Position numbers and translations under genes: made by a program
Assembly: GCA_021772675.1 (NCBI GenBank)
Contig: JAJFLO010000040.1
Location: 5,083 to 69,082, forward strand
Length of the DNA: 64,000 nucleotides
Origin: Verrucomicrobiota bacterium
GTDB lineage: Bacteria; Verrucomicrobiota; Lentisphaeria; JABSQK01; JAJFLO01
Direction of reading: 5' to 3'
Notes under the pieces: model-generated
The model's database searches: none
What the model saw: the letters and a program-made list of their open reading frames with translations, nothing else
What the model was told of the DNA's origin: nothing
Part shown: positions 4,529-34,361 of the stretch, in pieces
How positions within the stretch are numbered: position 1 is the first letter of the stretch
Layout: every line of letters begins with the position of its first letter

Positions 4529-5141
4529 AGACAGTGATTTGTTTGATATACGACTAAATCCTCCTTTTTTATACTGTCATCGGGCTTCTTGCAGCAGCTC
4601 ATTTGAATCGTGTTATCGAAGATCATATTGCACTAAACGCTCTAGATTTACGCTTATAGAAGTCATTATTGTCCTGGTAATTTTTGGACTGATTTTAGGA
4701 ATAGTAGTACCGAAAGTCGGGCATATCTCTTCTGGCATAATTCGGTCAAATGCGATCAAAAATATTAAGTCTTCCTTTTACATGGCTTCCAGTATTGCTG
4801 CTGCTTCAGGAAAACCAGTAAAACTCAAATTCAATATTGAGCAAAAGTCAATTGACATTAATCGTTCCGCCTCGACGAATACAAGCCATTTCGAGGATGA
4901 ATTTGACATGCCGAGAGGCAGCATTTTTGATGATCTTAAACAATTTTACTTGCCTGAAAGTACCGAGTTAGATCCTCATTCTTTTAATGATTATTCTGAT
5001 GATGCATTTGAGTACAGCTTTTTTCCGAATGGTGAAGCTGCCGGTCCAAATATTTCGATTTTGATTGAAGAAAGTATTGTCGTATCAATTGATGTTGATC
5101 GTTTAACCGGTAAACCCCTGATAAAAATAGATGAACACTAA
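4503..5141 (+). CDS. minor pseudopilin, GspH-like (prepilin-type N-terminal domain)
   Basis: RFTLIEVIIVLVIFGLILG prepilin motif at about nt 4644. The start is uncertain. ATG 4503 overlaps the gspG end, and the 4320 start in the ORF track would overlap gspG heavily. Confidence 0.5.
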   Translation: MWAVGLSNKDSDLFDIRLNPPFLYCHRASCSSSFESCYRRSYCTKRSRFTLIEVIIVLVIFGLILGIVVPKVGHISSGIIRSNAIKNIKSSFYMASSIAAASGKPVKLKFNIEQKSIDINRSASTNTSHFEDEFDMPRGSIFDDLKQFYLPESTELDPHSFNDYSDDAFEYSFFPNGEAAGPNISILIEESIVVSIDVDRLTGKPLIKIDEH

Positions 5142-5274
5142 ACGTTGCATAAAAGAAAGTTTGACACGGTTGTGTCAATTTTTTATGATCAGTAGAGATG
5201 ACCTCCTAAATGGTCGCGATACTATGCCAGGAACACTCCAGAATTTAACCCCCCAATATCAACACATTCATCAG

Positions 5275-5688
5275 ATGTCATTGAAACGACGAATTACCAG
5301 CCATTTTACGCTCATAGAAATTCTGTTTGCTATGATTATTCTTGCATTGTCCCTTGGAGTAACATTAGCAATATCAGCACAAGCCAAGGGTGAAATTATC
5401 AGAGCACAACAGCGCTGGATCATGCAGCATTCATTAGAGCAGGTTGTCGAATATTGTTTGCTGGCAGATCCAGAACATATAAAGGTGCCAGATGATTTGT
5501 TGCCGGTAGGGTTTTCGGCGGAATGTCAAGTTGATATTGTAGAAGAAGGACTTCCAGAATTTGCCCTAGTCGAAGATTATAAAGGATGGCAGCTTGGTGT
5601 CTATACCATAACCGTTTACAATCGTTCAGGCGATTTGAGCAGTGAACAGATTGTCCATAAACTGATTCCTCAAGATCGTGGATTCTGA
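5275..5688 (+). CDS. minor pseudopilin, GspI-like
   Basis: MSLKRRITSHFTLIEILFAMIILALSLG prepilin-type N-terminus. The start is placed at the in-frame ATG 5275. Confidence 0.55.
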   Translation: MSLKRRITSHFTLIEILFAMIILALSLGVTLAISAQAKGEIIRAQQRWIMQHSLEQVVEYCLLADPEHIKVPDDLLPVGFSAECQVDIVEEGLPEFALVEDYKGWQLGVYTITVYNRSGDLSSEQIVHKLIPQDRGF

Positions 5689-6335
5689 TGGGTAAATCAC
5701 ATCAAAAAATCAAATGGTTTACTCTGGTTGAGGTTATCATTGCCATTTCTCTTTTAGTGACGGTTATCGGGATTTTGTTTTTGGGTACAGGTACGGTAAT
5801 GAGTTCCTGGGAGCAACTAGGCAGGCATACCAAGAGTTTGGAAGAACTGTTTCTTTTAGACCGGAGTCTGGACGCTTTACTCACGAATATCATTCCGTTA
5901 ACCTGGCCGGATGAAGACAACATCAAACAAGAATCTTTGTTTTTTGGTGAAAGTAACAAGGTTGTTTTTAGTTATATCCATTCGTTTAACCAGCTTGAGG
6001 ATGGCGCCATTCGTACGTGCAGCATGTTCGTTGAAGATGATGAGTTAGTCGTTTATTACTGCGAACGTCCACCCTTTCCCGATAACTTAAATTCAGACAT
6101 TTTGAAACGATCTGTATTGGCTTATGGAATTGAATCTATTGGATTTGCCTACGCTGATATGGAAGAAGGTGATCTTGAATTTAAGGATACATGGGAAGAG
6201 GAAGATTACCTGCCTTTAGGTATTCGGATCAATGTCAGATTTTTAAATGGTGCCAAGCAGAGTTGGCTTCGAAGAACCGCTGGTTCGTCATTTTATGAAC
6301 GGTGGGGGAAATGGGAGCAGAAAGAACGAATATGA
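5688..6335 (+). CDS. minor pseudopilin, GspJ-like
   Basis: MGKSHQKIKWFTLVEVIIAISLLV prepilin-type N-terminus. The ATG overlaps the upstream TGA by 1 nt (TGATG). Confidence 0.6.
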   Translation: MGKSHQKIKWFTLVEVIIAISLLVTVIGILFLGTGTVMSSWEQLGRHTKSLEELFLLDRSLDALLTNIIPLTWPDEDNIKQESLFFGESNKVVFSYIHSFNQLEDGAIRTCSMFVEDDELVVYYCERPPFPDNLNSDILKRSVLAYGIESIGFAYADMEEGDLEFKDTWEEEDYLPLGIRINVRFLNGAKQSWLRRTAGSSFYERWGKWEQKERI

Positions 6336-7417
6336 AATTTAATCGATATCGTTATCATCCAGCCGATATACCATTGAAAAATGAGAATGGTTTAGCATTG
6401 ATTATTGTCCTTGGTGTTGTCAGTTTGTTTACGGTACTTTCCGGTATGTTAATCAGTTCTTCAAAGGTTGCGGGAATCAATTCGAAAATCAACGTGGACC
6501 GAAGTCGAGCCAAATATGCGGCAGAATCTGCCACTGCGTTTACTCATTGGATGGTGATGAATTACAACTATAATCGGCCCGCAGAGTTAATTGAGGAAGA
6601 TTCGGACGAAGAGGCGTGGTTGGCAGACGGCACTAGTCATAAACTTAATATGGTAGACGGCTTGACTGCCGAAGTAAAGATTTTTGATGTAAATCGGGGA
6701 TGGAATATTCTCCAACTCCGAAACGAAAAATCGAAACTGATTAATCGCTATGCATTGGAAGATGATGAAAAGCGTGAAAATTTTGAGCGATTCTTTGCTG
6801 TGTTTAATGATTATATTGACAGAGACAATAAAAACCGCAGCCACCCGGATTATGGTATGGAAAATGACGATTATGACGCTCTGGATTATGAAAATTTTCC
6901 AAGAAACAGCAGTGTCGTTTTTAGGGAAGAAATGTATTGGCTTGATGGCGTAAAGTTTCTCGTGCCTAATTTAGGAAATTTTGAATTGGCCACTGCATTA
7001 CCTGATGATTTATTCAGAGTTATTGCTCCGCGTGGCATTGCTGATCCGGGTTCGAATCAGTATTCATTTTGGTCCGCGCCGATGCATTGGCTGGAATCGA
7101 ATAGCGGAGATGGTTTTTCAAGTTCTGAAGAGAATATAATCAAGGAATGCCGGGAAAAAGGATTTATTGATGAATTAAACTTGCAGGAATGTTTGGGATT
7201 TGACCTATACTCAAAATTAAAATCAATAAGAGGATTGTCCTTTGATCCAAAGAGTACACAGGTTTATACCATTGACGTTACTGTCTCAAGTGCTAATGGA
7301 GAAATTAGTCGACGAATGGTCAGCACCATGAATCTAAAAAATTTACCTGCATTTGTCGGTAATAGCGATGTTGGATCAATTACCATTCTTCCATACTGGC
7401 AAAAAATATTTTATTGA
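6332..7417 (+). CDS. GspK-like pseudopilin/secretion protein
   Basis: N-terminus NENGLALIIVLGVVSLFTVLSGML, typical of GspK (no processed Phe). ATGA overlap with the upstream gene, and the position follows the G-H-I-J order. Confidence 0.5.
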   Translation: MKFNRYRYHPADIPLKNENGLALIIVLGVVSLFTVLSGMLISSSKVAGINSKINVDRSRAKYAAESATAFTHWMVMNYNYNRPAELIEEDSDEEAWLADGTSHKLNMVDGLTAEVKIFDVNRGWNILQLRNEKSKLINRYALEDDEKRENFERFFAVFNDYIDRDNKNRSHPDYGMENDDYDALDYENFPRNSSVVFREEMYWLDGVKFLVPNLGNFELATALPDDLFRVIAPRGIADPGSNQYSFWSAPMHWLESNSGDGFSSSEENIIKECREKGFIDELNLQECLGFDLYSKLKSIRGLSFDPKSTQVYTIDVTVSSANGEISRRMVSTMNLKNLPAFVGNSDVGSITILPYWQKIFY

Positions 7418-7613
7418 ATCATTTATGAGCCTTCTCTGAAGCTTAAATATTTTTGGGGTTAGGTTTTAGATTTACGAATACGAATTACTTACACGGATAA
7501 CGTTGGAGGGTCGATGTCCTCAGCGACCGATATCCTTTGATAGCCAAGAATCGGACGTCGAGGACGCCGTCCCTCCAAAAATTATAAGTGAACCCAAGTT
7601 TCGTATTATTTTA

Positions 7614-7776
7614 ACTCACATTTTAGGTTTCATTTTTGATTTGTTAAAGTAACTCGGCCATTCCTGGCTGAGATACCTTGTGATTTGCGCAGCCAAGAAT
7701 GACGGCGTTACTCAGTTTTGATCGCAAGTTAACCATATTTGAATAACAAATCAAAAATGAAACCTAAAATGTGAGT
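7614..7776. repeat. composite MITE, family A: outer inverted repeats ACTCACATTTTAGGTTTCATTTTTGATTTGTTA enclosing a REP doublet (REPIN)
   Basis: The outer inverted repeats are read at both ends. Inner GTAACTCGGCCATTCCTGGCTG (7649-7670) pairs with CAGCCAAGAATGACGGCGTTAC (7690-7711). Other copies lie at 11909-12310 and 30356-30546. Confidence 0.7.
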
Positions 7777-7947
7777 ATTAACTAAGCCCGCGCATACGGG
7801 CTCTAAAATCGCTCTTCTAACTAAATGTAACGAAGTAGTAATGTGACTTATAGTGTTAATCTATTGCAAGACGTTCTGTCTCGAGGTACTTTTGTAGGAT
7901 TTCATTGAAGATATTACACAATCGGTTATTCTATAGGATTGAATTCT

Positions 7948-9000
7948 ATGAGCAGGTTGAGATTGACGAGCAACAGAGAAAATTCTTATCAATATTCGCA
8001 TCAGCATAAACGAACGGGAATAAAGGTTTTTGAAGCAACGTTATTGCTCATCGCGGTTTCCGCGATGGGAACTTTGGGTTATTATACCATCGAAGACTGG
8101 GGGTTGTTTGATTCCTTTTATATGACTGTAATAACTCTGGCGACGGTTGGTTATGGCGAGACTCATGATCTGAGTATGACAGGTAGACTTTTTACCGTGT
8201 TTCTCATTATAGTTTCGTTGGGCGTTGTCGGATATGGCGTGTCTAATTTAGCTGCATTTGTAGTTGAAGGTGAATTTCAACGTATGATTCAGGATCGAAA
8301 AATGGATAAACGAATCTCAAAAATGAAAGATCATATTATTCTTTGCGGTGCTGGACATAATGGAAAATGCGTTGCAGGAGAGTTTTACAAAACACAAACA
8401 CCATTCGTCATTATTGAAAAAAATCCAGAATATCTAAAGGCTGTATTTGAGATTGGTGACATTCCCTTTATCGAAGGAGACGCGACTCAAGACAGTGTCC
8501 TGCAATTAGCAGGCATCGACCGCGCGAAAGGATTAGTTACATCATTGTCAGATGATAAAGATAATACGTTCGTGGTTCTCAGTGCACGCTCCCTGAACCC
8601 AAAGTTAAAAATCATTGCCAGAAATATTGAGGTAGAGAATGCTGAAAAACTCCGAAAGGCGGGTGCAGATGAAGTTATTTCTCCCAATTCAATTGGCGGA
8701 TTACGAATGGCTTCAACGATGATTCGCCCATCTGTAGTTCAGTTCCTTGACGAGATGCTCAAAGATAAATCGAATACCATTCGATTTGATGAAGTAAAGG
8801 CCAATGACATTGCGTCGTTCATTGGATTATCGGTAAAAGAAGCCAATATTTCGAATAAAACGGGGTTACTTATTTTGGCTGTAATGCATGAAGACGGTGC
8901 CTACGATTTTAATCCGGATTCTGACATGATTTTCGCAAAAAATGATATTCTCCTCGTAATGGGCTCGCGTGATCAAATTGACAGGCTGAAAAATATATAA
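7948..9000 (+). CDS. potassium channel protein with RCK/TrkA-N and TrkA-C domains
   Basis: Two TM helices flank the selectivity filter TLATVGYGE. The Rossmann motif is ILCGAGHNG. A C-terminal TrkA-C-like region is present. The ORF opens at TTG 7939 and the first ATG is at 7948. Confidence 0.85.
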   Translation: MSRLRLTSNRENSYQYSHQHKRTGIKVFEATLLLIAVSAMGTLGYYTIEDWGLFDSFYMTVITLATVGYGETHDLSMTGRLFTVFLIIVSLGVVGYGVSNLAAFVVEGEFQRMIQDRKMDKRISKMKDHIILCGAGHNGKCVAGEFYKTQTPFVIIEKNPEYLKAVFEIGDIPFIEGDATQDSVLQLAGIDRAKGLVTSLSDDKDNTFVVLSARSLNPKLKIIARNIEVENAEKLRKAGADEVISPNSIGGLRMASTMIRPSVVQFLDEMLKDKSNTIRFDEVKANDIASFIGLSVKEANISNKTGLLILAVMHEDGAYDFNPDSDMIFAKNDILLVMGSRDQIDRLKNI

Positions 9001-9052
9001 CTTGATTGTCTGGGAATTTGTATTCTAAGTTGCTAAATGGTAACAGTTTTTG

Positions 9053-9146
9053 GGTGTCAGGTGTCAGGTGTCAGGTGTCAGGTGTCAGGTTTCAGGTTTC
9101 AGGTTTCAGGTTTCAGGTTTCAGGTTTCAGGTGCCAGGGGTCAATG
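9053..9146. repeat. heptanucleotide tandem repeat, about 5x GGTGTCA then about 6x GGTTTCA, with degenerate units
   Basis: Read directly: GGTGTCAGGTGTCAGGTGTCAGGTGTCAGGTGTCAGGTTTCAGGTTTCAGG... Confidence 0.85.
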
Positions 9147-9186
9147 TCAAGTCCGGGTTAAAAATTAAATGAGAATCACTTTATGT

Positions 9187-9327
9187 GAGTCCGTATTCAT
9201 GTTGTGAGTGGTAAAAAGTAACTCGGTCATTCCTGGCTGAATCAGGTGTGCGCCGTCAGGAATGACCACGTTACTTTGCGCAAACCCCGAGAATTTCCGG
9301 AGCCACTCACATTTTGAATACACACTC
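9187..9327. repeat. MITE-like element, family D, enclosing a REPIN
   Basis: Termini GAGTCCGTATTCATGTTGTGAGTGG ... CCACTCACATTTTGAATACACACTC. Inner GTAACTCGGTCATTCCTGGCTGA pairs with CGTCAGGAATGACCACGTTAC. Confidence 0.6.
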
Positions 9328-9556
9328 GACCTCCGCCCCGTTGAACGGGGCGGGACTACGAACGAGTTGCAATTAAATTTATAGCATCGAAGGTTCGAAG
9401 TAAAGTCCCGTTCATGAGTAGGACTGATTTTGCCAGTTGCTGCGGTAGAGAAGCTCGGAAAAGCTGGTTGATTAGTTACAAAAATTGAAATTAAATTATT
9501 ATTTTTATGAGTGATATGAAGTCCAATAACCTGTACATATTTGTAAGTGACGCTTA

Positions 9557-11626: not shown

Positions 11627-11684
11627 ACTACAAGTATAAGTGTTGTATAAAGACGATCATAAAAATTATTTGCACGTATTAAAT

Positions 11685-11776
11685 ATACCGACAGCCATCA
11701 GGTTTTCGACAGGTTTCTGTAAAATTGTTGCCTGAAATGAATAACGACTGTCGAAAAACCTACTGCTTGCAGTATA
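11685..11776. repeat. family B structured repeat
   Basis: Near-identical to 1913-2004 and to the reverse complement of 33967-34058. Confidence 0.6.
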
Positions 11777-13112: not shown

Positions 13113-13134
13113 GATTTTTCCTTTTTTAAGTGGC

Positions 13135-13740
13135 GCGGACATTCCTGTCTGCGTATTTTAATTTTTTTTTCTATAATGCCCTAATTTTCTCAGCCAGGAA
13201 TGACCGAGTTACTTAGTGGTGCGTACATTCCTTTCTGCGTATTTTTTAATTTTTTCTGCTATAGAGCCTTAATTTTCTCAGCCAGGAATGACCGAGTTAT
13301 TTAGTAGCGCGTACATTCCTTTCTGCGTATTTTTTAATTTTTTTTCTATAGAGCCCTAATTTTCTCAGTCAGGAATGACCGAGTTACTTAGTAGCGCGTA
13401 CATTCCTTTCTGCGTATTTTTTAATTTTTCTTGCTATAGAGCCCTAATTTTCTCAGCCAGGAATGACCGAGTTACTTAGTAGCGCAGACATTCCTTTCTG
13501 CGTATTTTTTAATTTTTCCTGCTATAGAGCCCTAATTTTCTCAGTTAGGAATGACCGAGTTACTTAGTAGCGCGTACATTCCTTTCTGCGTATTTTTTAA
13601 TTTTTTCTGCTATAGAGCCCTAATTTTCTCAGCCAGGAATGACCGAGTTACTTAGTAGCGCGTACATTCCTTTCTGCGTATTTTTTAATTTTTTCTGCTA
13701 TAGAGCCTTAATTTTCTCAGCCAGGAATGACCGAGTTACC
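13135..13740. repeat. tandem array of 7 REP-containing units, period 87-88 bp
   Basis: CTCAG(C/T)CAGGAATGACCGAGTTA recurs at 13189, 13277, 13364, 13452, 13540, 13628 and 13716. The DNA between recurrences is also conserved, so there are no unique spacers. Confidence 0.85.
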
Positions 13741-14340
13741 TTCCCTTAACCATCGCCAGTCATCGGGGTTCTTTACCAATCCCGCCTTAACCGGATTATT
13801 CCGAATATAACGTTTTACACTTTCTGTTTTATCTGCACTTCTACACCAATGATCGAAGTTTTCAGGCATCCAAAATTGACCTTTACGATTCAGTATTTTA
13901 TTTGCTTCTCTTGCAGTAAAACCCTTCATAATACCGATGCTTCTCTCAAGTGATTTAGTCGCTAATTCACTATCAACTAACAAAATGTGAACATGATTAG
14001 GCATAATGACTGCCGCAGGTATACGCCAGTGACATTCCGTTTCCAACCAGTCAAAAGATTCCAATACTATCTGAGCAATTTCCGGTATTCTTAAATATGT
14101 TGGAGAATTTTTTGCACTATCCAGAATTGTTTCTACTGTTTTGAACCTTTTTCGTTGAAATATAAGTATTTCTTCCTGATTGGGATCACTGTCAAGAAAA
14201 TTTTGGTAATCCCGTTTTAATCTGTTTACGATTGATTCGGGTAGTGACCCTTTAAGTCTAAACGTCACGAAATAAGGTTTGCTTTTGACATGCCAATGTG
14301 GCAGATTCCGTCTTCGAAATGATGTTGTGTTTGGTGTCAT
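13717..14340 (-). CDS. REP-associated tyrosine transposase (RAYT; IS200/IS605-like Y1 transposase family)
   Basis: RRNLPHWHV..YFVTFRL near the N-terminus and the HUH motif MPNHVHILLV. The gene is flanked on both sides by REP units, and its last 7 codons (GNSVIPG) and stop lie inside a REP copy. Confidence 0.8.
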   Translation of the reverse strand: MTPNTTSFRRRNLPHWHVKSKPYFVTFRLKGSLPESIVNRLKRDYQNFLDSDPNQEEILIFQRKRFKTVETILDSAKNSPTYLRIPEIAQIVLESFDWLETECHWRIPAAVIMPNHVHILLVDSELATKSLERSIGIMKGFTAREANKILNRKGQFWMPENFDHWCRSADKTESVKRYIRNNPVKAGLVKNPDDWRWLREGNSVIPG

Positions 14341-14415
14341 AAGATTTTATTTAGTCGTGCGGGCAGTCCTGTCTGTGTAAAATTTTGTATGTTTGCTGTG
14401 CTGCCATGATTTCAT

Positions 14416-14530
14416 CTCAGCCAGGAATGACCGAGTTACTTAGTGGCGCGTACATTCTTGTCTGCGTATTTTTTTTAATTTTTCCTGCTATAATGCCCTA
14501 ATTTTCTCAGCCAGGAATGACTGAGTTACC
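14416..14530. repeat. two further REP units (period 90 bp) on the other side of the RAYT gene
   Basis: CTCAGCCAGGAATGAC(C/T)GAGTTAC at 14416 and 14506, in the same orientation as the 13135-13740 array. Confidence 0.75.
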
Positions 14531-14597
14531 CAAAATAATTTTTCCGCGCTTCGCGCAAAGAATTAAGGGTAAAAAACTAAAAGAATAAAGGGTAAAA

Positions 14598-17500
14598 CTA
14601 AACGTCTCGCAAAACAACCCGACAACCGTAGCTGTCCCACCGGCCGCCCGGGGCGTCGTCGATGCGGGCAGAGCAGGAGCAGGAGTCTGGATCGCGGTAC
14701 CAGGCGCCGCCCCGCAAAACACGGAACCTACCATCATCAGGACCTTCGGGGTCTTTCTTTGTTGAGTCCTTATAATAATCACTTTTATACCAGTCCCTGC
14801 ACCACTCCCAGACATTACCGGCTAGATCATAAATTCCCTCCGGTGTTTGTCCAGAGGGGTAACTGCCCACCGCTGATGGTTTGCCCAAATTAGATTTAGA
14901 GTAGTTCGCATATTTTTCTGAAATATCATCATTTCTCCACGGGTAAAGCGCATCGGAACGGCCGCGAGCCGCATATTCCCATTCAGCCTCTGTCGGCAGT
15001 TGGACGATCGTTTTTTGCGGTAGGTCTGATTCGCTTTGCAGGTGCCCAGTCAGCCAACTGCAGAAGGCTTCAGCTTCATACCATGAAACTCCAATAACAG
15101 GTTGATTAGGACTACTAAATTCTTCGTTGTCCCAATATTCAGGTTGGACCCATTTATTTGATTGACGCTGCTTCCAGCCTGCTTCGCTCCACCATTTTCT
15201 GTCATCATATCCTTTGGTATCGATAAACATTTTATATTGGCCGTTGGTAATCGGGTACCGGCTCATTTTAAATGGAGTTAATTCAACATCATGTTTAGCC
15301 TTTTCTCTTCCCATTGTAAAGCAGCCACCCGGAAGGTCAACCCACATTTCAATATCAAAATCACAGACTCCGGAGCGTTGATCGCCTGACCAGCCAAGAA
15401 TCAAACCAGCGTCAACGCGCTCATGTGCAGCGAGTTTCTCTTCACTCAGTAATGTTGTCAAGCGGCTGTTGAGCCGTGTCAAAAACTGAGGACCGCCTCC
15501 CTGTTTATCATTCTCAATCGGTCCCCGCTTGATGATGCGTGCAAAGTGTCCCGCCCACAAAACACCGCGCCAGTCATCTTCACGTTTCGGCTCGGGAATG
15601 CCGGGGCACAGGCTGTACGTTAAATCCAATGCCGGGTTTTCATTGCCGTCATTAAAGAGCAGTTCTTCCATTCCGAGTTCTACGCTAAGACGCCAGTATT
15701 CACCTTCCGCGAGTAATTCTTTGACCGTACGATTAAAACTTCGTGTTCGCTTTGCCAGATAGCAACCGGCAAAATACTCCTGGAATGTCCGGTGGGGAAA
15801 GGCATAAACACGCTCGACATCCTGACCACGACCGCTCAATAACCCGGAGGTCGTATCGATATAATCCAGCAGTTTCATTGCTGCTTTTTTTGAGTCGGTA
15901 ACAACACCGGATAAATTTTTTGTAAAACTGCTCATTGCCATTGCCCAGGGAATATCCGGCATTTGCTCTCCATCGCGACCGGCTTTTTGTGCCAGATAGC
16001 CCAGTTCCCATAATGCAAAGAGCATCCGTGTCTCATCCGATAATCCGACATCGTCAAATAATGAAACCTTTTGACCTATTCTAACTTCCTGCCATCGTTT
16101 CATCATCAGCATTGCCGCCTGGTCATAAAGTTTCACTCGTTGACGCGGCAGTTCGACATTGGTCGTATGAACACCGGCCAGGGTGGTCAGTAATAAGGGA
16201 TTACTGACCATATCCTCTGGTAGTCTGCCAACAGCCTGTTGCAGATTATCTGTTTTTGTCTGTGCCCAATCTGCGGGTTTGCCAAGTCGGTGCAGCGCCT
16301 GATACCAGTACGTGATAAAATTATTGATCTGTTTGTTGCTGAATGGGGCCAGGGTGATCGTTTGATACGTTGCTATGACGGTATCCTTAACATAAGAAAG
16401 TATACGGCATGTCACAATTATTCGATTACCCTTGGAGCCGACGGCGAGAATTCCCAATACCTCACGTAACAGGAATTGGTCGTCCTTTGGCACTTCATCT
16501 AAACCATCGAACACCAGCAGGCATCGGTCATCTTCCAGCAGACGAACGAGTTCACTGCTGAAACCGGATAGGCCATCAGCGTCTAATTTTTTCTGAAGAT
16601 GCTTTTTAATGATGCGCATAAACTGGCATAAACGCTGTTCCTGAGTTGATTTTATATATTGCTGCGAATTCTCTTCCTGTAGTGTTACCAGTAATTCTCG
16701 CAGGACGACGCGGATTGGGAAATAATGGCGATGGGGCCAGTCTTTTAATGATACAGATTCGGGGTTAAGTTGACGTTCAGCCAATTGCCAGAGAAGGTGA
16801 TTGATAAATGAGGTTTTGCCGGATCCCGGATCACCCAGAATAACCAGCAGCGGTTCATTCGCTGCCGCTTCTAACGCTGTGAGTGGTCGGACTTTGTCAT
16901 CTCCGAAATGAAAACGATCCTCGTTTACCTTGGCAGGCTTACCTTGTTTATCAACGAATGTCGTCGTATTTAATCCGATATAAATCTGGTCCAGAGTAAG
17001 GCGGAGATTCGCCTGTGGGTCGCCGCTTTTTGCTATATCAGCCAGAGGTAGAAGATTGCACACTGTCGATAAATTCTTAAAATAACGTTGGCGCAAAACC
17101 TCGATCGGGACCGAAGGCTCTTGTGGTTCTGTTGGTATCAGAGTTTCCGATGATGCTTCAGGAATATAATCTCCCTGAATATAACCGATGTGATTATGGC
17201 CGTGTTTGTCCTCGATCTTCAGGCGGTTCCATTTCAGCTCCGTTAAATGAGAAAAATCCGTTGACTGCTTTAATTCATCATCAAGTGTGTGGCGAAAAAG
17301 CATGGTTGTAAAGAGCGCGGACGGCTCTCCGGATGCAGTCTGGAATTTTTTGAATTCCCCTTCGCTCATCAACCGTTCGGCATCGGCCATCACCGAACCG
17401 TAGTATTGATCACCCACCAGTTCCACATTACCGTAAGCCAATACCAGGCGCAGTGACAGTGGCAGATCGCCGCCTTTTATCCCTTCATTGTATTCGACCA

Positions 17501-17780
17501 GGTCATGACGTAGTTTCTGTGTATACTCCAGCGCCACATCCGTTGAGATTCCCTTTAAGAAAATATAATATCCGTCTCCTGTTCCATGACGTTCAAAAAG
17601 TTGCGAAAACGGCATTATCGGGCTGATAAATTTTCCGGCCTGATCCATTGATTCCCCGAGTTGTTTCAGGATAATTTTACGGTGAACGTCGTCCTTGTAG
17701 AGACTAGTAAAGCCGACGATATCGACCAGCAGAATGGGAAACATTTTATTAGTAGTCATTGATTTGGTGGTGGCTGACAT
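14598..17780 (-). CDS. DGR target protein 1: cyclase-homology-like N-domain, NACHT NTPase, FGE-type C-type-lectin domain with C-terminal VR
   Basis: 1060 aa. The N-terminus carries FPILLVDIVGFTS, GTGDGYYIFL and GSVMADAERL. NACHT Walker A is LGDPGSGKTSF and Walker B is LLVFDGLDEV. The C-terminus carries FGE-sulfatase-type motifs: [42 protein letters not shown]. The last 116 nt match the TR. Confidence 0.9.
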   Translation of the reverse strand: MSATTKSMTTNKMFPILLVDIVGFTSLYKDDVHRKIILKQLGESMDQAGKFISPIMPFSQLFERHGTGDGYYIFLKGISTDVALEYTQKLRHDLVEYNEGIKGGDLPLSLRLVLAYGNVELVGDQYYGSVMADAERLMSEGEFKKFQTASGEPSALFTTMLFRHTLDDELKQSTDFSHLTELKWNRLKIEDKHGHNHIGYIQGDYIPEASSETLIPTEPQEPSVPIEVLRQRYFKNLSTVCNLLPLADIAKSGDPQANLRLTLDQIYIGLNTTTFVDKQGKPAKVNEDRFHFGDDKVRPLTALEAAANEPLLVILGDPGSGKTSFINHLLWQLAERQLNPESVSLKDWPHRHYFPIRVVLRELLVTLQEENSQQYIKSTQEQRLCQFMRIIKKHLQKKLDADGLSGFSSELVRLLEDDRCLLVFDGLDEVPKDDQFLLREVLGILAVGSKGNRIIVTCRILSYVKDTVIATYQTITLAPFSNKQINNFITYWYQALHRLGKPADWAQTKTDNLQQAVGRLPEDMVSNPLLLTTLAGVHTTNVELPRQRVKLYDQAAMLMMKRWQEVRIGQKVSLFDDVGLSDETRMLFALWELGYLAQKAGRDGEQMPDIPWAMAMSSFTKNLSGVVTDSKKAAMKLLDYIDTTSGLLSGRGQDVERVYAFPHRTFQEYFAGCYLAKRTRSFNRTVKELLAEGEYWRLSVELGMEELLFNDGNENPALDLTYSLCPGIPEPKREDDWRGVLWAGHFARIIKRGPIENDKQGGGPQFLTRLNSRLTTLLSEEKLAAHERVDAGLILGWSGDQRSGVCDFDIEMWVDLPGGCFTMGREKAKHDVELTPFKMSRYPITNGQYKMFIDTKGYDDRKWWSEAGWKQRQSNKWVQPEYWDNEEFSSPNQPVIGVSWYEAEAFCSWLTGHLQSESDLPQKTIVQLPTEAEWEYAARGRSDALYPWRNDDISEKYANYSKSNLGKPSAVGSYPSGQTPEGIYDLAGNVWEWCRDWYKSDYYKDSTKKDPEGPDDGRFRVLRGGAWYRDPDSCSCSARIDDAPGGRWDSYGCRVVLRDV
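14607..14722 (-). other. DGR variable region VR1
   Basis: 116-nt alignment to TR 18897-19012. By hand count, 19 of the 20 differences fall on TR coding-strand adenines. Confidence 0.9.
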
Positions 17781-18341: not shown

Positions 18342-18720
18342 TGTGTGTTTTGAATGAAAAAAAGTTACCGGACCTGAATCCGTTCTAAATCCGTTTTTGG
18401 CGATAATATACCGATTGCTATCAGGTTTTCGACAGGTTTCTGAAAAATCGCCAACTGAAAGATTCATGGCGCGGCCATTCCTGTCTGTGTAATTTTTAAG
18501 ATTTGACTTGCAGACACGCGTTATCTCCCTCAGTCAGGAATGACCGAGTTACTGCAAGATATGTATTAATCCTTTTTTAATTTTTTAACAAGCGGTGATA
18601 CATATTCCTTAATTTGCCATTGTTCAAGAAATGCTTCAATTGTAATAGAAAGTTTATGCATAATGCAGATTAGGGCTGCCATTTTTCTAACACGTTAAAA
18701 AATATTAAATTTAAGTTTTC

Positions 18721-18778
18721 AAAAAAAGTCCCGGCACGGACGTTCGAACCATACAGGCCTACCAGCCTCTGCCGGGAC
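18721..18778 (-). terminator. putative intrinsic terminator/structured 3' end of the DGR transcript
   Basis: On the minus strand, GTCCCGGCA ...(33 nt containing the palindrome GTTCGAAC)... TGCCGGGAC is followed by TTTTTTT. The loop is unusually long for a simple terminator. Confidence 0.45.
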
Positions 18779-18843
18779 GGTGTTTTATTTGGCCCGGTCG
18801 TAATGACCGAACACAGGAACAAACTCAGACGTTTCTGATATGC

Positions 18844-18867
18844 CCGGCAAATTCGTAAATTTGCCGG
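18844..18867 (-). other. perfect 10-bp stem, 4-nt loop hairpin about 30 nt downstream of the TR
   Basis: CCGGCAAATT-CGTA-AATTTGCCGG, read directly. Confidence 0.6.
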
Positions 18868-18896
18868 CTCTAATCGGTATAGCCAAATGAATCGTA

Positions 18897-19012
18897 TCGC
18901 AAAACAACTCGAAAACCGTTGTTGTTCCATCGGTTGTTCGGGTTGTTGTTGATGCGGGCAGAGCAGGAGCAGTTGTCTGGATTGTTGTTCCAGGCGCCGC
19001 CCCGCAAAACAC
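18897..19012 (-). other. DGR template region (TR)
   Basis: Begins 5 nt after the RT stop. The minus strand reads in target frame as [38 protein letters not shown], with 12 Asn codons (11 AAC, 1 AAT). It is homologous to the 3' ends of three genes. Confidence 0.9.
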
Positions 19013-19016
19013 ATTA

Positions 19017-20084
19017 CTAGTAGCTTGTCCCCTTAGTAAGTCGAACCCGACCAAGAACCCGGGTTCGCAGCCGGTAACTGCTGCCCCAACGAACATGACC
19101 AACCCAACTTTGAATGGATTGATGGATTCGATCTAGGGAAATCTCATTATTGTTATATTGACAACATAGTTTTTGTAAATGGCGTTGGTACCGACGGGAT
19201 TTCTGTTTTAATGGAATTCTGTGTGTCGGCCAATTACGAAATCCAAGAAACTGACACCCTTCCCTAACACGGAGAACCTGGCATTTTTTCGGGTGAATTT
19301 TCAACCGAAAAGATGCCAAATAGTGTTTGATTTTACTACAAATCTCCCACAACTGCTCTTTACTATGGCCGAATACTGCAAAATCATCCATATAACGCAA
19401 ATACGGAGGCTGGTGCAGTTGCTCTTTTATGAAATGGTCCAGTGGGTTAAGATAGACATTCGCGAATAATTGGCTGGTTAGATTTCCTATAGGTAGGCCT
19501 CGCCTGCGCATATAGGGTGTAAAAAGGTCATCACCTGGGAAATAATGTTCCATCTCCTCCTGAGGATTACTGTTACTTATGATTTTCTCGATCAGTTCCA
19601 GTGTTCGCTGACATCCGATTTTTCGCCTGATTCGCTGAAGCAGAATGTCGTGGTCTATTGACGGGAAGAATTTTTGGATATCACATTGTAACACCCAGGG
19701 AAATTGGCAGCTGTAATCCTGAAATTTCAGCAGTGCTTTATGAGTTCCTTTTCCGGACTGGCAGGCATAGGATGTCGTAATAAATGTTCGATCAAAAATG
19801 GGTTCAATGATTTGGCAGATTGCATGGTGTACCACCCGATCACGATAAGGCGCAGCGCTGATTAAACGCTCTTTCGGTTCAAATATCTGAAAGCTGCGAT
19901 AATTTCCAGGCTGAAAATATCCTTCCGTTAATTCTCGCTGGAGTGTTAAGAGTTCATTTTCGAGATGATATTCAAAACGCGCCGTTTCGGTACGAAAGCG
20001 TTTACCTCTGCGTGCAGTTCGGGAAGCGCGCAGGAGATTTTCGAAACATGTTATTTTCTGGAAAAGATTTTTTGCCGTTTTCAT
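19017..20084 (-). CDS. DGR reverse transcriptase
   Basis: 355 aa. Motifs are [39 protein letters not shown] (the DGR-typical I/LGxxxSQ) and the catalytic YMDDFAVF. No group II intron maturase or endonuclease extension is present. An avd-like gene and the TR are adjacent. Confidence 0.92.
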
Positions 20085-20434
20085 GGTTTACGTTGTTGTT
20101 TCAACCAGGCGCCCACCTCTGTGCCGATGTCATTGACAAGCTGTGCTGCATGGCCGTAACGTTTTGTGCTCAGACAACGCAGGTCTTTCGCCAGTCGCAG
20201 CGAAAACCGAAGCTGCTCAATCAGTAAATTGACTTTTTGCAAACTTGTTTGTTTATTTCGGCTAAATTTTGCTTCAATAAGCATCGTTAAAACATCACTG
20301 GCATTTGTTTCAATGCGATCGCCAAGGGTAAATTTTCGGGATCGTGGAAATTTATCTAGCATGGGGATTAACCAAAGAAGAAAATCATAGGTTTTGGTGA
20401 TTACGGACAATTCTTTTGGACACGGCATTATCAT
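20081..20434 (-). CDS. avd: Avd-like accessory protein (four-helix-bundle, 23S rRNA intervening-sequence protein family)
   Basis: 117 aa. [28 protein letters not shown] is typical of this family. The protein is basic, and it overlaps the RT start by 4 nt (ATGA). Confidence 0.85.
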
Positions 20435-20517
20435 ATCCCATTATTTTCATTAATTTTTTTTTCCGCGCTTCGCGCAAAGAATTAAGGGTAAAAAGAGTAA
20501 AAGAAAAAAGGGTAAAA

Positions 20518-23500
20518 CTAAACGTCTCGCAAAACAACTCGAAAACCGCCGAGGCTGATCCATCGGCCGCCCGGGTAGTAGTCGATGCGGGCAGAGCAGG
20601 AGCAGTAGTCTGGAGCGCTGTACCAGGCGCCGCCCCGCAAAACACGATATTTACCACGATCAGGACCATTTGGATCTTTCTTTTCTGAATTCTTGTAATA
20701 ATCTTCATTATACCAATCCCGGCACCACTCCCGGACATTGCCGACAAGATCGAAAACCCCCTCCGGTGTTTGGCCAGACGGATAACTGCCAACCGCTGAT
20801 GGTTTGCCGATATTCGATTTAGAGTAATTCGCATATTCTTCTGAAATTTTGTCATTTCTCCATGGATAAAGCGCATTGGATTGACCACGGGCGGCGTATT
20901 CCCATTCAGCCTCGGTCGGCAGTCGTACAATCGTTTTTTTCGATAGACCTGATCCAGTATGCAGATGTCTTGTCAACCAGTTGCAAAAGGCTTCGGCTTC
21001 ATACCATGAAACACCGGTAACGGGTTGATTCGGAGCGTTTGCTTCTTCATTGGTCCAATGTCGGGGTTCGTCCCATTCATTTGATTTACACCGCTTCCAG
21101 CCCTCTTTGCTCCATAATGTGTCGTCATTATATCCGCTTGCATCGATAAACATTTTGTATTGCCCGTTGCTAATCGGGTACCGGCTCATTCCAAACCGGG
21201 TTAACTCAACCTCATGACTGGCCTTTTCTCTTCCCATTGTAAAGCGGCCACCCGAAAGGTCAACCCACATTTCAGGATTAAAATCGCATACTCCTGGCCG
21301 TTGATCGCCTAGCCAACCCAGAATCAGGCCGGCATCAACGCGTTCACGGAATGCAAGTTTACCATGTGTGACCAATGCTGTCAGATGTTTATTTAACCGA
21401 CCTAAAAATTTTGGTCCGTTGCCTTCTTCATCCTTCTTTATCGAGCCTGCGCCAATGATGTGCGCTAGATTTCCAGCCCAGAAAATACCGCGCCAGTCTT
21501 CTTCTGATTCAGGTTCTCGGTCCTCTGGACATAAAGAATACGTCAACCCAAGGGCGGGGCGTTCATTTCCGTCATTAAAGAGTAGCTCTTCCATGCCAAG
21601 CTCAATGCATAATCGCCAATAATCTCCCTGTAAGAGTAATTCTTTGACCTTTTGATTAAAATTGAGTGTTCGTTTTGCCAGGTAGCAGCCTGCGAAATAC
21701 TCCTGAAATGTTCGATGAGGAAAGGCGTAGACCCTGTCAGTTTCTCCACCACGGCCATGCAGTAATCCTGATGTTGTATCGAAATAATTCAGTAATTTTA
21801 CAGCAGCTTCTCTGGGTTGCAGGACGATCTCTTCCAGGTTTTTTGTAAATATTTCGACTGCCGTGGCCCAGGGAATGTCAGAAATTTTTTCAGAATCCTT
21901 CCCCGCTTCATGGGCCACATAGCCAAGTTCCCATAACGGATAGAGCATTCGCGTTTCGTCCCTTAATCCAATGTCATCAAACAATGACATCTTCTGGCCG
22001 ATCCTGACTTCCTGCCAACGTTTCATCATCAGCATTGCAGCTTGATTGTACAGCGTCACTCGCTGCCGCGGCAGTTGCAGATTCGTTGCATGGACACTGG
22101 CCAATGTCGTGAGCAGCAGAGGATTTCTAACCATATCAACAGGAAGTTTGCCGACAGCCTGCTTCAGGTCATCAGTTTTTTCAGCTGACCAATCAATGGA
22201 TTTTCCAAGTCGATGCAGGGCGAGATACCAGTGATCAATGAAGTCATTTATTTGCTCCCTGCTGAATGGAGCGAGTGTGATATTACGGTAGGTTGGCAGC
22301 ACGGTATCCTTCACATAAGAAAGAACACGGCAAGTTACTATGATACGATTGCGCCGACAGCCGCCGGCAATGATTTCCAATGCTTTACAGAGAAGCAGTC
22401 GATCGTCCTTTGGCACTTCGTCAAGACCGTCAAATATCAACAGACACTGATCATCCTCCAAAAGGCGAAACAGTTCATGGCTAAAATCGGTCAGGTTATC
22501 CGAGTCTAATTTTTTCTGCAAATGCTTTTTTATGATGCGCATAAACTCACGCAGCCGCTGTTCTGGAGCACACCCAACATATTGATCCGCATTTTCTTCG
22601 TGCAGTGTTAGTAATAATTCCCGCAAGATGACGCGAATAGGAAAATAATGCCTATGGGACCAGCCTTTTAACGATTCAGAGTCCGAGTTGAGTTGATATT
22701 CTGCCAATTGCCATAAAAGATGATTGATAAATGAGGTTTTACCGGATCCCGGATCACCCAGCATAACAAGTAGTGGTTCGTTGGTCGTTGCCTCTAAAGC
22801 AGTGAGTGGCCGTGTTTCGTTTTCCCCAAAATGTAAATGATCATCTTTTTTATCGATAGTTTTTCCCTGTTTGTCAATGAAAGTCGTTGTATTTAACCCG
22901 ATATAAATTTTGTCCAGTGTCAGGCGAAGATCAGATTGTGGATCGCCACTTTTAGCGATATCCGCCAGAGGTAAAAGATTACAAACTATTGATAATTTTT
23001 CGAGATAACGTCTACGTAACACGCCCACCGGGATTGAAGGCGATTCTGGTTCAGTTGCAGTCGGAGTTTCATAGGGCGCTTCCGGCACATAATCACCCTG
23101 AATGTAACCGATGTGTTCATAACCGTGTTTGTCTTCGACCGGGAGTCGGCTCCACGTTAAACCGGTTAAATGAGAAAAATCATTGTTCTCGGTTAAATCA
23201 TCCTCAAGTTTGTGGTAAAACAGCATTGTCACAAATAATGCGGATCGGACTTTACAGCTTGACTGGAATTTTTTGAAATTTTTATCATCGATCAGCCGAT
23301 TTGCATCGGCCATTACCGAACTGTAGTATTGATCGCCAATAAGTTCTACATTACCATAAGCTAACACCAGACGCAGTGATAGGGGCAGGTCTTTACCTTT
23401 ACTACTTCCGTTGTATAATTCCAGTTTTTGGCGAAGTTGCTGAGTATATTCCATGGCAACCAGTGATGAAACGGCGTTAAATAAAATATAATACCCATCC

Positions 23501-23709
23501 CCTGTTGTTTCACGCGGGAACAGTTGTGAAAATTTGATTACCGGACTAATAAAAGTCCCGGCATCATCTATCAATTCCTGAAATTGCCTCATGACTGCCT
23601 TACTGTGAGTGTCATCATGGTAGCGTGATTTAAAGCCGACGATATCAATCAGCAGTATTGGAAACATTTCATTTTCTTTGATATTCATCCTACATTCTCC
23701 ATTTTTCAA
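20518..23709 (-). CDS. DGR target protein 2 (cyclase-like, NACHT, FGE/CLec with VR)
   Basis: 1063 aa, collinear with target 1 at high identity by eye. Motifs are FPILLIDIVGFKS, TTGDGYYILF, LGDPGSGKTSF and LLIFDGLDEV. Lies immediately upstream of avd on the same strand. Confidence 0.9.
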   Translation of the reverse strand: MKNGECRMNIKENEMFPILLIDIVGFKSRYHDDTHSKAVMRQFQELIDDAGTFISPVIKFSQLFPRETTGDGYYILFNAVSSLVAMEYTQQLRQKLELYNGSSKGKDLPLSLRLVLAYGNVELIGDQYYSSVMADANRLIDDKNFKKFQSSCKVRSALFVTMLFYHKLEDDLTENNDFSHLTGLTWSRLPVEDKHGYEHIGYIQGDYVPEAPYETPTATEPESPSIPVGVLRRRYLEKLSIVCNLLPLADIAKSGDPQSDLRLTLDKIYIGLNTTTFIDKQGKTIDKKDDHLHFGENETRPLTALEATTNEPLLVMLGDPGSGKTSFINHLLWQLAEYQLNSDSESLKGWSHRHYFPIRVILRELLLTLHEENADQYVGCAPEQRLREFMRIIKKHLQKKLDSDNLTDFSHELFRLLEDDQCLLIFDGLDEVPKDDRLLLCKALEIIAGGCRRNRIIVTCRVLSYVKDTVLPTYRNITLAPFSREQINDFIDHWYLALHRLGKSIDWSAEKTDDLKQAVGKLPVDMVRNPLLLTTLASVHATNLQLPRQRVTLYNQAAMLMMKRWQEVRIGQKMSLFDDIGLRDETRMLYPLWELGYVAHEAGKDSEKISDIPWATAVEIFTKNLEEIVLQPREAAVKLLNYFDTTSGLLHGRGGETDRVYAFPHRTFQEYFAGCYLAKRTLNFNQKVKELLLQGDYWRLCIELGMEELLFNDGNERPALGLTYSLCPEDREPESEEDWRGIFWAGNLAHIIGAGSIKKDEEGNGPKFLGRLNKHLTALVTHGKLAFRERVDAGLILGWLGDQRPGVCDFNPEMWVDLSGGRFTMGREKASHEVELTRFGMSRYPISNGQYKMFIDASGYNDDTLWSKEGWKRCKSNEWDEPRHWTNEEANAPNQPVTGVSWYEAEAFCNWLTRHLHTGSGLSKKTIVRLPTEAEWEYAARGQSNALYPWRNDKISEEYANYSKSNIGKPSAVGSYPSGQTPEGVFDLVGNVREWCRDWYNEDYYKNSEKKDPNGPDRGKYRVLRGGAWYSAPDYCSCSARIDYYPGGRWISLGGFRVVLRDV
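20527..20645 (-). other. DGR variable region VR2
   Basis: 119 nt. There are 17 substitutions relative to the TR, all at TR adenines, plus one extra codon inside the 3'-most AAC run. Confidence 0.9.
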
Positions 23710-28983: not shown

Positions 28984-30195
28984 TTACCAACCTTTATGAA
29001 CGTAGTCCCACCAACGTCGTACTAGTGGTAGTTTAAAACGCCATGAATTCTGATTGTCCCGGAGCAGATAATGATCGTCTAAAAGTAATTTAAGCATCAC
29101 ACCGGCATATTCTTTATCGATATCTTGATAAGTTTCATCATATCGCAGTATCTTCACCAGCGCATCGAATTCCAAACCGTGTTCGAATTGACAGAGTTTT
29201 CTTAGTATGGTTCGTGCCAGCTCGGCTTTTTCATCCGGATAGTAGGCAGCCAGGCGACTTTTGTAATAATTGAACTCAGCCGGGTCCCCGTGCGCATCAA
29301 ATAATTGTTCTGGAATCGCTTCTATTATAGCCACTGTCCATGGGGACTCTTCGTTCTCCGACATCCATTTTACTATATGCTGTATGTAGAAGGGGACAAA
29401 GCAGGCGGTGTTGGCAATCGCTTCGGCACACTTGGCGATTGAATCACAAGGAATGGCTTCTCCCCGGATAAGACTGCCGGCAAGATACGTGCCGTCTTCA
29501 GAAGATAAAGGCGGAAGTTCAATTGGCGGTATATCATTGACGGGTTGTCCGGTATAACCAAATGATGTGAGTTTATCGAGGACGATATGTAATCCGAGGG
29601 AACCACAAAATAACATGCGGAAATTTGGATGTTCATGTCGAAGCGCACGCAAATCATCAAGGATGCGAATGGCATCATGCGCGTGATTATTTTTGATTAA
29701 TCCATCAAGAAAATGTGGCAGTTCGTCAATGATTAGAACCACCATGCGATCATCTGCGTTCCGAACAGCGTCAGCAACAGTTTCTTCGAGAAAAGTACTC
29801 CAGCTGGTTACTTCAGGAAGGCGTTGAGTTCCGATAGTTTGGCCCTGTAATTTTTGTGCCTGCCGCAGGAACCAGTCTTTTGCTCGTTGTAATCGCCGAT
29901 CATCAAATAGATTTTCGATATGGATTTGCTGATTAATTCGCCAGATTAGTTCAGGTGCCGATTTGTCACGTTGTGCGTCGATAAACAAGGTAACGGCAGA
30001 TTCGGGTGCGATAGCGCGGGCGAGTTGAATCAGCCATGTTTTTCCCATACGGCGTTCTGAGAGAATGCGCAGACTTCCGGATTCCAGCCGCCGCCACAAG
30101 AGCTGTGCCAGCTTCTCTCTTCCAAAAACGAATTCGGAGGCCTCCCCTACGCTTGGATTGCCAAACTTGAGCTTTGTCGGTTTATAATTCATCAT
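28984..30195 (-). CDS. ATP-binding protein (AAA-type, archaeal-ATPase/DUF234-like)
   Basis: 403 aa. P-loop-like ERRMGKTWLI and Walker B VVLIIDELPHF. Its stop codon abuts the start codon of the 1748-aa gene (TAA then ATG with no spacer). Confidence 0.7.
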   Translation of the reverse strand: MMNYKPTKLKFGNPSVGEASEFVFGREKLAQLLWRRLESGSLRILSERRMGKTWLIQLARAIAPESAVTLFIDAQRDKSAPELIWRINQQIHIENLFDDRRLQRAKDWFLRQAQKLQGQTIGTQRLPEVTSWSTFLEETVADAVRNADDRMVVLIIDELPHFLDGLIKNNHAHDAIRILDDLRALRHEHPNFRMLFCGSLGLHIVLDKLTSFGYTGQPVNDIPPIELPPLSSEDGTYLAGSLIRGEAIPCDSIAKCAEAIANTACFVPFYIQHIVKWMSENEESPWTVAIIEAIPEQLFDAHGDPAEFNYYKSRLAAYYPDEKAELARTILRKLCQFEHGLEFDALVKILRYDETYQDIDKEYAGVMLKLLLDDHYLLRDNQNSWRFKLPLVRRWWDYVHKGW

Positions 30196-30278
30196 TAATC
30201 GTACGACCTTTTTATCGTACGATAGATTCCGTCAATTGATTTTGCAAGCGCGTTCGGAAATTTTTTGCATCAAAAAAA

Positions 30279-30612: not shown

Positions 30613-30712
30613 AATATTAGATTAATGAGCTTCTTACAAAAGTCTTTTCGGCATCATTTCTTGCTCAAAATTCTGCTTGAACATACTTTTGCAAAAAAGC
30701 TCTGATGTTTTA

Positions 30713-34285: not shown

Positions 34286-34361
34286 GCCAAAGTAGCTCAG
34301 TTGGTAGAGCAATTCACTCGTAATGAATAGGTCAGCGGTTCAAATCCGCTCTTTGGCTCCA
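34286..34361 (+). tRNA. tRNA-Thr (anticodon CGU), CCA encoded
   Basis: The cloverleaf was folded by hand. Acceptor is GCCAAAG/CTTTGGC, the D-arm reads GCTCAGTTGGTAGAGC, the anticodon stem is ATTCA/TGAAT with loop CTCGTAA, and the T-arm is GCGGTTCAAATCCGC. Ends with discriminator T and CCA. Confidence 0.9.

Follow-up and report, generated by a model that had tools for sequence, protein, structure and literature searches.

The DNA analysed here is a 64,000-nt stretch (the window, positions 5,083 to 69,082) of contig JAJFLO010000040.1 from a Verrucomicrobiota bacterium of the Lentisphaeria (assembly GCA_021772675.1). Between 14.5 and 33.9 kb it very probably carries a diversity-generating retroelement (DGR) island, in which a template repeat (TR) is paired with the variable repeats (VRs) of three target genes, T1 to T3, whose products resemble NOD-like receptors (NLRs) and combine cyclase-like, NACHT and lectin domains. 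The whole DGR locus is read on the minus strand, where all of its features described below are located.

The retroelement cassette and its repeats

The core of the island is a cassette with the order avd-RT-TR-RNA. The reverse transcriptase (RT, 19017–20084, 355 aa) is encoded by an intact open reading frame (ORF), matches Pfam RVT_1 (E 4.9e-29) and displays the motifs IGNLTSQ and YMDD. Its best match in PDB, over the full length, was 8ub7_A (328 aa, E 8e-60), with group II intron RTs coming next (3.6e-26). We take 8ub7_A to belong to the phage bRT cryo-EM series, the search output labelling it only as 'Reverse transcriptase'. The nearest relatives of the RT are about 60% identical to it. The Avd accessory protein (20081–20434, 117 aa) is also intact, and was recognized both by the NCBIfam equivalog NF033474 DivGenRetAVD (108.9 bits, cut-off 80) and by Pfam bAvd (71.5 bits, cut-off 40; E 1e-19).

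A repeat finder run on the window recovered a single four-copy repeat family (14595–14722, 18885–19012, 20518–20645 and 30779–30906), and alignment with MAFFT identified the copy at 18885–19012 as its A-rich member. The TR proper (18897–19012) is 116 nt long (116–117) and starts 4 nt past the RT stop codon. Of its 30 adenines, 24 fall within twelve Asn codons (eleven AAC, one AAT), and since the A-rich codons are all AAC or AAT, changes at adenines cannot create stop codons. The TR itself is non-coding, yet it can be read as a peptide in the frame of the three target genes.

Each of the other copies forms the 3' end of a target gene. VR1 (14607–14722, in T1) has the length of the TR and differs from it by 19 adenine changes and one non-adenine change, a T>G that converts Phe to Cys in the GFRVV motif. 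VR2 (20527–20645, in T2) has 16 adenine changes, no change at any other base and a 3-nt insertion that amounts to one extra codon. VR3 (30790–30906, in T3) shows 13 adenine and no non-adenine changes in its ungapped blocks; its AAC-AAC-AAC block has a net gain of 1 nt relative to the TR, which leaves the last ~12 codons frameshifted and the ORF 66 nt longer.

Splitting the repeat at its one indel block left 106 ungapped nt, i.e. 24 adenine and 82 non-adenine sites, for comparison. At the adenines VR1, VR2 and VR3 differ from the TR in 16/24, 12/24 and 13/24 cases, against 1/82, 0/82 and 0/82 at the remaining sites (Fisher one-sided p 3e-12, 1e-9 and 2e-10; pooled 1e-30). In other words, 41 of the 42 substitutions in these blocks are on TR adenines, which make up 23% of the sites. 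The agreement of VR3 with the TR at all 82 non-adenine sites, even though T3 is only 31% identical to T1 in protein and 55% identical to either other target in the DNA 5' of the VR, is hard to account for unless VR3 was copied from this TR or from one identical to it. No further VR was found when the whole window was scanned on the non-adenine positions, the best other site having 30/65 non-adenine mismatches.

Much of this had been anticipated by the first-pass annotation of the window, which relied on a hand alignment. The coordinates that it gave, 14607–14722, are those of VR1 and not of the TR, which is the A-rich copy; the length of 116 nt, the 30 adenines and the full set of VR1 changes, including the TTT>TGT replacement in GFRVV, came out of the computed alignment exactly as described. 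It had also held that VR2 and VR3 vary at adenines only. This was borne out (for VR3, in the ungapped blocks), with 16 changes plus the insertion in VR2 where it had 17; for VR3, to which it gave about 18 in all, the ungapped blocks have 13. The peptides that it read at the TR Asn codons (YRD/S/DDA/GG/DSY, YSA/Y/DYY/GG/ISLG and NYG/S/AYD/GG/frameshift) are all correct, and the near-complete identity that it noted outside the adenines holds for the 82 ungapped sites. Its two main proposals, a signature of mutagenic retrohoming and one TR serving three loci over 16 kb, are upheld: the adenine-restricted mismatch is real, and it is found in a locus that presents every feature of a DGR for which sequence can be examined, i.e. 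an A-restricted TR/VR pair, a DGR-type RT, Avd, a VR 3' flank distinct from that of the TR and an FGE/C-type-lectin target.

The structured RNA and the flanks of the variable repeats

The 180 nt downstream of the TR fold better than shuffled sequences and can be aligned with the same region in the nearest relatives. Directly 3' of the TR we delimited a structured RNA (18721–18896, fold z-score -3.1) that resembles the Sp element of the DGR of Bordetella phage BPP-1 and is henceforth referred to as Sp-like. It opens with a helix of 11 bp capped by a UACG loop (18843–18868), and further on come a hairpin (18787–18814) and a long terminal helix with a T-run (18721–18776). At 19022–19032, 5' of the TR and inside the 3' end of the RT gene, there is a candidate strand of a 'cPRT stop' duplex, complementary to 18815–18825; the duplex was predicted by RNAduplex and covaries in two related loci, the sibling DGR L009 (59% RT identity, the same avd-RT-TR-RNA order) and L027.

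To these lineages the comparison added L013 and L043, which together with L027 form a third lineage detected by motif scan, and L011, L002 and L001, detected with an nhmmer profile, whose RNAs sit directly after their own RT/TR. The other loci among the 33 obtained in the RNA-motif scan of metagenomes were chance matches in coding DNA, only L013, L027 and L043 being true relatives. In the RNAalifold structure of the resulting six lineages, 23 of the 42 pairs show compensatory change, compared with 12.1±2.3 in shuffles (0/500), and the number falls to 5–12 when the partners are slid along the alignment. In the helix of the UACG stem alone, 8 of 10 pairs have such changes.

No Rfam family was found at its gathering score. 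RF03068 (RT-3 RNA) did give a full-length, correct-strand alignment at 18730–18879 (17.1 bits) and in L009 (20.9 bits), and the common features are a tetraloop hairpin, UGAG, a second hairpin, an A-rich linker and a terminal helix with GGUAG...CGAA. As both scores are below the gathering score of 40.5, membership was rejected, and the Sp-like RNA may at best be a divergent relative of this family. The Avd of a phage DGR binds the RNA at a stem of 11 bp capped by a UNCG loop, and cDNA synthesis is halted by a duplex that forms between the sequences 5' and 3' of the TR (bioRxiv 10.1101/2023.10.23.563531). The predicted UACG stem-loop and TR-spanning duplex described here match these two elements, the binding of protein being putative.

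The sequences that follow the repeats on their 3' side distinguish template from targets. Past TTGCGA all three VRs continue into GAGACGTTTAGTTTTACCC and the TR into GATACGATTCATTTGGC. The flank of VR1 (14532–14606, repeat family D17) starts with GAGACGTTTAGTTTTACCC and contains TTTTACCCTT twice as well as a small GCGCGAAGCGCG hairpin. Those of VR2 (20440–20526, extending into the start of avd) and VR3 (30700–30789) are conserved, and in L009 too the VR is followed by the TTTTACCCTT motif. Over the 90 nt 3' of the VRs identity is 80–86% in all pairs, dropping to ~50% in the following 160 nt. For the 300 nt on the 5' side the identity between T1 and T2 is 81% and that of T3 to either is 55%, with homology stopping exactly at the TR boundaries in T3. 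Given that the 3' flank is conserved for only ~90 nt and the 5' side of T3 is divergent, the unit common to the three genes is the VR plus ~90 nt. We infer from these alignments that the flank is a candidate initiation of mutagenic homing (IMH) or target-recognition element. The GCGCGAAGCGCG hairpin, ~55 nt from the VR, was considered as a cruciform of the type found in BPP-1 and discarded, for although conserved it is not energetically significant (fold z -1.8, +0.5 and -0.6 against shuffles). The GC-rich IMH of BPP-1 is likewise lacking here.

The target proteins and their surroundings

T1 (14598–17780) encodes a protein of 1060 aa with a cyclase-like domain (~10–220), a NACHT domain (312–492) and an FGE-sulfatase/C-type-lectin domain (812–1056). 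T2 (20518–23709, 1063 aa) has the same architecture and is 70% identical to T1, and T3 (30713–33865, 1050 aa) is a distant paralogue with an identity to T1 of 31% overall and 64% in the cyclase-like domain, and has lost its C-terminal strand to the frameshift. Among the three targets only T2 retains an undamaged GFRVVLRDV tail. NACHT scores are 37.2, 32.8 and 47.3 bits for T1, T2 and T3 (Pfam cut-off 26.7), and the FGE-sulfatase domain is recognized by Pfam with E values of 1.5e-58, 3.8e-56 and 6.1e-31. The VR covers the last ~38 codons of this domain, at the very C-terminus of the targets. FGE-sulfatase-like sensors have been recorded among prokaryotic signal transduction ATPases with numerous domains (STANDs) (PMC13581612). 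PADLOC gave only weak matches at the P-loop level.

The N-terminal ~210 aa have no match in Pfam, PADLOC or NCBIfam (searched with the N-terminal 300 aa), nor was Pfam Guanylate_cyc detected at E<=1. The domain recurs in ~100 clusters among 1.8 billion representatives. A profile built from 28 sequences hit PDB 3mr7, an adenylate/guanylate cyclase (E 6.7e-8). The AlphaFold2 model of the domain has a pLDDT of 90.8, and the top 50 PDB matches found for it with Foldseek are all class III adenylyl/guanylyl cyclases (probability 1.0, TM (target) <=0.80). The Asp residues of DIVGF and TGDGYY are kept in T1 to T3 and are nearly invariant across the domain family. Profile and predicted structure agree on a class III cyclase fold, with catalysis putative. 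The same domain also stands at the N-terminus of STAND proteins that end in TPR, His_Phos or FGE domains, and once occurs with TIR, so that, as judged from its combinations, it behaves like an effector module. In related conflict systems, cyclase domains that generate nucleotides are known to serve as effectors (PMC7159879). In L009 the targets (4605–9556) are Peptidase_C14 (caspase-like) plus FGE proteins, and only the avd neighbour carries a VR that matches the TR. It follows that the C-type-lectin sensors served by related RTs are attached to different effector modules.

Next to T3 lies a decayed DGR cassette (30272–30612), composed of an avd stub, a fragment of the Sp-like RNA, an insertion, and the 3' part of the Sp-like RNA with its terminator. 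Beyond VR3 and its flank there are ~95 nt of unrelated sequence and then the first 45 nt of avd (30568–30612), which align with the start of the intact gene at the VR2-avd junction and run straight into a segment from the interior of the Sp-like RNA (30549–30590). The insertion, of ~190 nt, bears a motif resembling repetitive extragenic palindromes (REPs) at 30490–30511, and the 3' part of the RNA that follows gave the second match to the RNA profile in the window (30272–30355, nhmmer E 1.9e-15). Deletion has removed the RT and the TR along with the greater part of avd and the 5' portion of the RNA. The remnant indicates that T3 formerly had a DGR copy of its own and can now be rewritten only in trans, by the surviving RT and TR.

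A further paralogue, P4 (23737–28983, 1748 aa), is not a target. It carries AAA, wHTH and TPR domains followed by cyclase-like, NACHT and FGE domains (Pfam), and its cyclase-like domain (747–940) has lost both candidate metal-binding Asp residues (INIVGF and SINGYY where the targets have DIVGF and TGDGYY). Its FGE tail, ALRGGSWIDGSGSCQVTARNQ..., was tried as a fourth VR and rejected, with 30/65 non-adenine mismatches to the TR. P4 looks like a fusion of an AAA/ORC-Cdc6-like ATPase-wHTH-TPR protein with a T3-like protein, to go by its domains, and may act as a decoy or a regulator. Between it and the decayed cassette there is a gene for an AAA_22 ATPase (28984–30195, 403 aa).

The region from 14.4 to 33.9 kb has a G+C content of 44.4%, compared with 38–40% on both sides. 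It is bordered on one side by a tRNA-Thr(CGT) (34286–34361) followed by a resolvase, i.e. a serine-recombinase gene (35843–36370), and on the other by the gene for a Y1 transposase and a tandem array of 88-nt units. Composition and borders suggest that the island was acquired horizontally. As to the genome itself, the nearest named homologues of CarA come from metagenome-assembled genomes of Lentisphaerae (68–69% identity), a relative on an ENA contig reaching 88%, and the HIP1 motif (GCGATCGC), a typical cyanobacterial signature, is not enriched in the window (1 match vs 0.78 expected).

Repeats and mobile elements are abundant in and around the island. The 88-nt tandem repeat (7 copies, 93% alike, 13129–13739) lies beside the Y1_Tnp (IS200-like) gene (13717–14340, minus strand), and the window has 17 occurrences of its core motif CAGCCAGGAATGACCGAGTTAC, some of them arranged in inverted pairs. 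Solitary REP-like copies at 14415–14529 and 18467–18552 flank T1, and another (30490–30511) is the one inside the wrecked cassette. The combination of repeat and transposase looks like a REP system with its REP-associated tyrosine transposase (REP/RAYT). In L009 a Y1_Tnp flanked by 98–120-nt tandem arrays comes right after the DGR (22% protein identity, E 0.009). A dispersed 56-nt repeat is found at 1910–1965, 11682–11737 and 18405–18460 (84–86% alike), the third copy being beside a REP-like copy between the terminator of the DGR RNA and T1. In L027, seven copies of RF01687 (Acido-Lenti-1) below threshold (26–32 bits vs 37) are located on both strands at 5805–7250, between its DGR and a downstream target.

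Outside the island, an ISL3 transposase gene (39996–41204) precedes two giant adjacent paralogues (41199–46217 and 46523–51937, both on the minus strand; 1672 and 1804 aa) with several repeats that match flagellar FlgE/F/G hook/rod models (TIGR02490, 175.8 bits in 4 stretches), an unusual architecture for such domains. Beyond them, at 52220–63943, there is a cluster of signalling and secretion genes encoding FHA-sigma70_r2, Pkinase-WD40 (1260 aa), DUF928, TPS-domain and CHAT-TPR proteins. Together with the ShlB/POTRA gene at 37705–39360, this cluster is a set typically seen in genomes with many systems of the conflict and multicellularity type.

Relationships, activity and meaning of the locus

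The island shares with the BPP-1 DGR (mtd/avd/TR/Sp/brt) the adenine-specific transfer from TR to VR, Avd, an RT with the [I/L/V]GxxxSQ motif, a VR at the C-terminus of a C-type lectin with a 3' flank distinct from that of the TR, the 11-bp UNCG-loop stem 3' of the TR and the duplex bridging its 5' and 3' sides. It differs in that the TR comes after the RT and not before it, in being cellular with three targets where BPP-1 is a phage with one, and in its NLR-like targets, predicted to be cytoplasmic, in place of a tail-fibre receptor-binding protein. Closer in target architecture are the 'clade 5D' DGRs, which often diversify two targets of the STAND-NTPase plus C-type-lectin type and some of whose degenerate loci are served in trans (PMC10907252). 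DGRs 3 and 6 of Thiohalocapsa PB-PSB1 (RT clade 5D; PMC10907252) have duplicated targets with a central NACHT/nSTAND and a C-terminal FGE/C-type-lectin VR, the PB-PSB1 DGRs also have N-terminal extensions and nearby transposons, and their 'degenerate' loci are in the same situation as T3 with its wrecked cassette. The link of the window to RT clade 5D (Dore et al. 2024) consists only of this shared target architecture, and the class III cyclase-like N-terminal domain is a difference, the word 'cyclase' appearing 0 times in the Thiohalocapsa paper (PMC10907252). With antiviral STANDs (Avs, bNACHT) the targets share the arrangement of N-terminal effector, central NACHT and C-terminal sensor. In contrast to these, the sensor of T1 to T3 can be diversified by a DGR and is not fixed, the effector is cyclase-like instead of a nuclease, SIR2 or TIR, and a role in defence is putative.

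By homology to the Bordetella phage DGR, the operon avd-RT-TR-Sp-like RNA-terminator would give one RNA, from which RT and Avd would copy the 116-nt TR into cDNA while misincorporating opposite adenines. With the VR-specific flank as a guide, this cDNA would then take the place of the homologous VR that ends a target gene. T2, directly upstream of avd, and T1, downstream of the TR-RNA module, would be the nearby recipients, and T3, ~11 kb off, would be served in trans. In the resulting proteins the hypervariable lectin tip formed by the VR would bind a ligand, the NACHT domain would oligomerise and the cyclase-like domains would be brought together as the output.

That the DGR is active at present is something we infer from its sequence, and several observations weigh against this or against parts of the scheme. 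As many as 14 of the 30 adenine sites are in the same state in all three VRs, 7 of them unchanged and 7 all G, when a rough hand calculation predicts 1–2 sites with the same mutated base if the VRs were independent. The TR codons AAC AAC have become GGC GGC (Gly-Gly) in all three, and one same Asn codon is AGC in all three. Part of this excess must come from selection for small residues or from sequence exchanged among the VRs. VR2 and VR3 also have AGC CTC in common, in a block one codon longer than that of the TR, and this extra codon is near the 3' flank, in the part that each full homing event should overwrite. Together, the shared states and the longer block point to selection, conversion between VRs or the recent loss of one AAC from the TR. 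VR3 is frameshifted, and the T>G of VR1 falls in the conserved GFRVV strand. Searches at the population level found no variants: a 46-nt A>N pattern had 0 matches when run against metagenome contigs of the Joint Genome Institute (JGI), the 90% protein clusters of T1, T2, T3 and P4 have one member each, and the two Logan contigs of SRR15505515 that are 100% identical to the window (L006, 18200–20487; L007, 21600–30325) both end before every VR, the truncated T2 product of L007 (696 aa) not appearing among the homologues obtained for T1. Finally, the signalling logic of sensor, NACHT and cyclase is drawn solely from domain architecture.

Three other explanations can be set against these data. 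If the four repeats were ordinary paralogous copies kept alike by gene conversion and subject to normal mutation, no reverse transcription would be needed, and some exchange between VRs would indeed fit both the 14 adenine sites that are alike and the indel block common to VR2 and VR3. The test of adenine specificity effectively refutes this possibility, since of the 42 ungapped substitutions 41 are at sites with A in one particular copy, a class that comprises 23% of all sites (p 1e-30); that copy is moreover non-coding and sits beside a DGR RT and Avd, and in T3 the homology ends precisely where the TR does. A fossil element, in which retrohoming belongs to the past, no target is diversified now and the remote T1 and T3 are decaying, deserves more credit but seems to us rather doubtful. 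The frameshift and replaced ORF tail of VR3, the non-adenine change at the conserved Phe of VR1, the codon by which the 3'-proximal block of VR2 and VR3 exceeds the present TR, the cassette already destroyed and the failure to find population variants would all be expected of it. Yet the RT and Avd ORFs are intact with their catalytic motifs present, the TR retains all 12 Asn codons, the Sp-like RNA retains every covarying helix, VR2 and VR3 lack any non-adenine change at 82 sites, and the extra codon could be due to slippage of the RT on AAC repeats just as the frameshift could be an assembly error. The nearest sibling, moreover, varies in nature: the L009/L010 sequences of two JGI samples differ at 4 of 17,327 nt, and three of the four differences are in its VR, all at TR adenines.

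Assembly may also be invoked in another way. The frameshift of VR3, and perhaps the indels, could be consensus artefacts arising from the assembly of a hypervariable repeat, in which case T3 would be intact and diversified like T2 in the cells. The window is a metagenome-type assembly, and in Logan SRR15505515 the 5.2-kb P4 gene and the RT were assembled intact while no VR-bearing gene was recovered end to end, the contigs breaking near the repeated VR flanks. The repeated 3' flank (exact repeats >31 nt) would by itself be enough to cause such breaks, and no alternative sequence of VR3 was recovered, so we regard this explanation as a minority possibility.

Returning to the reading as a DGR that diversifies NLR-like targets, a more ambitious version of it can be proposed, tentatively, as one possibility among others: that the targets are a distinct bacterial type of NLR with a DGR-diversified lectin sensor, a NACHT domain and a cyclase-like second-messenger output, which would make the cyclase-like domain a new STAND effector module, and that T3 was recruited along with a VR, a 90-nt flank and its own DGR before becoming a client in trans. 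If this is true, the bacterium would make a repertoire of receptors in advance and signal through a nucleotide second messenger, and the locus would be a record of how a receptor is recruited.

On its firmer ground, the locus is a well-preserved example of the class described in 2024, that of cellular DGRs diversifying STAND sensors with C-type lectins, and the current picture of DGR biology is unchanged by it. What it adds is of modest novelty, namely an effector domain that resembles cyclases, the remains of a sister cassette and covariation support for the RNA that follows the TR. Within 20 kb it brings together a full cassette, one target in cis and one downstream, a third in trans next to a ruined cassette, and a non-target paralogue whose effector domain is dead. 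It offers in this way a test bed for what the recognition of a VR needs (the 90-nt flank and its TTTTACCCTT motifs), for whether the elements of phage DGR RNAs apply to cellular DGRs with the TR after the RT, and for the output of STAND sensors diversified by DGRs.

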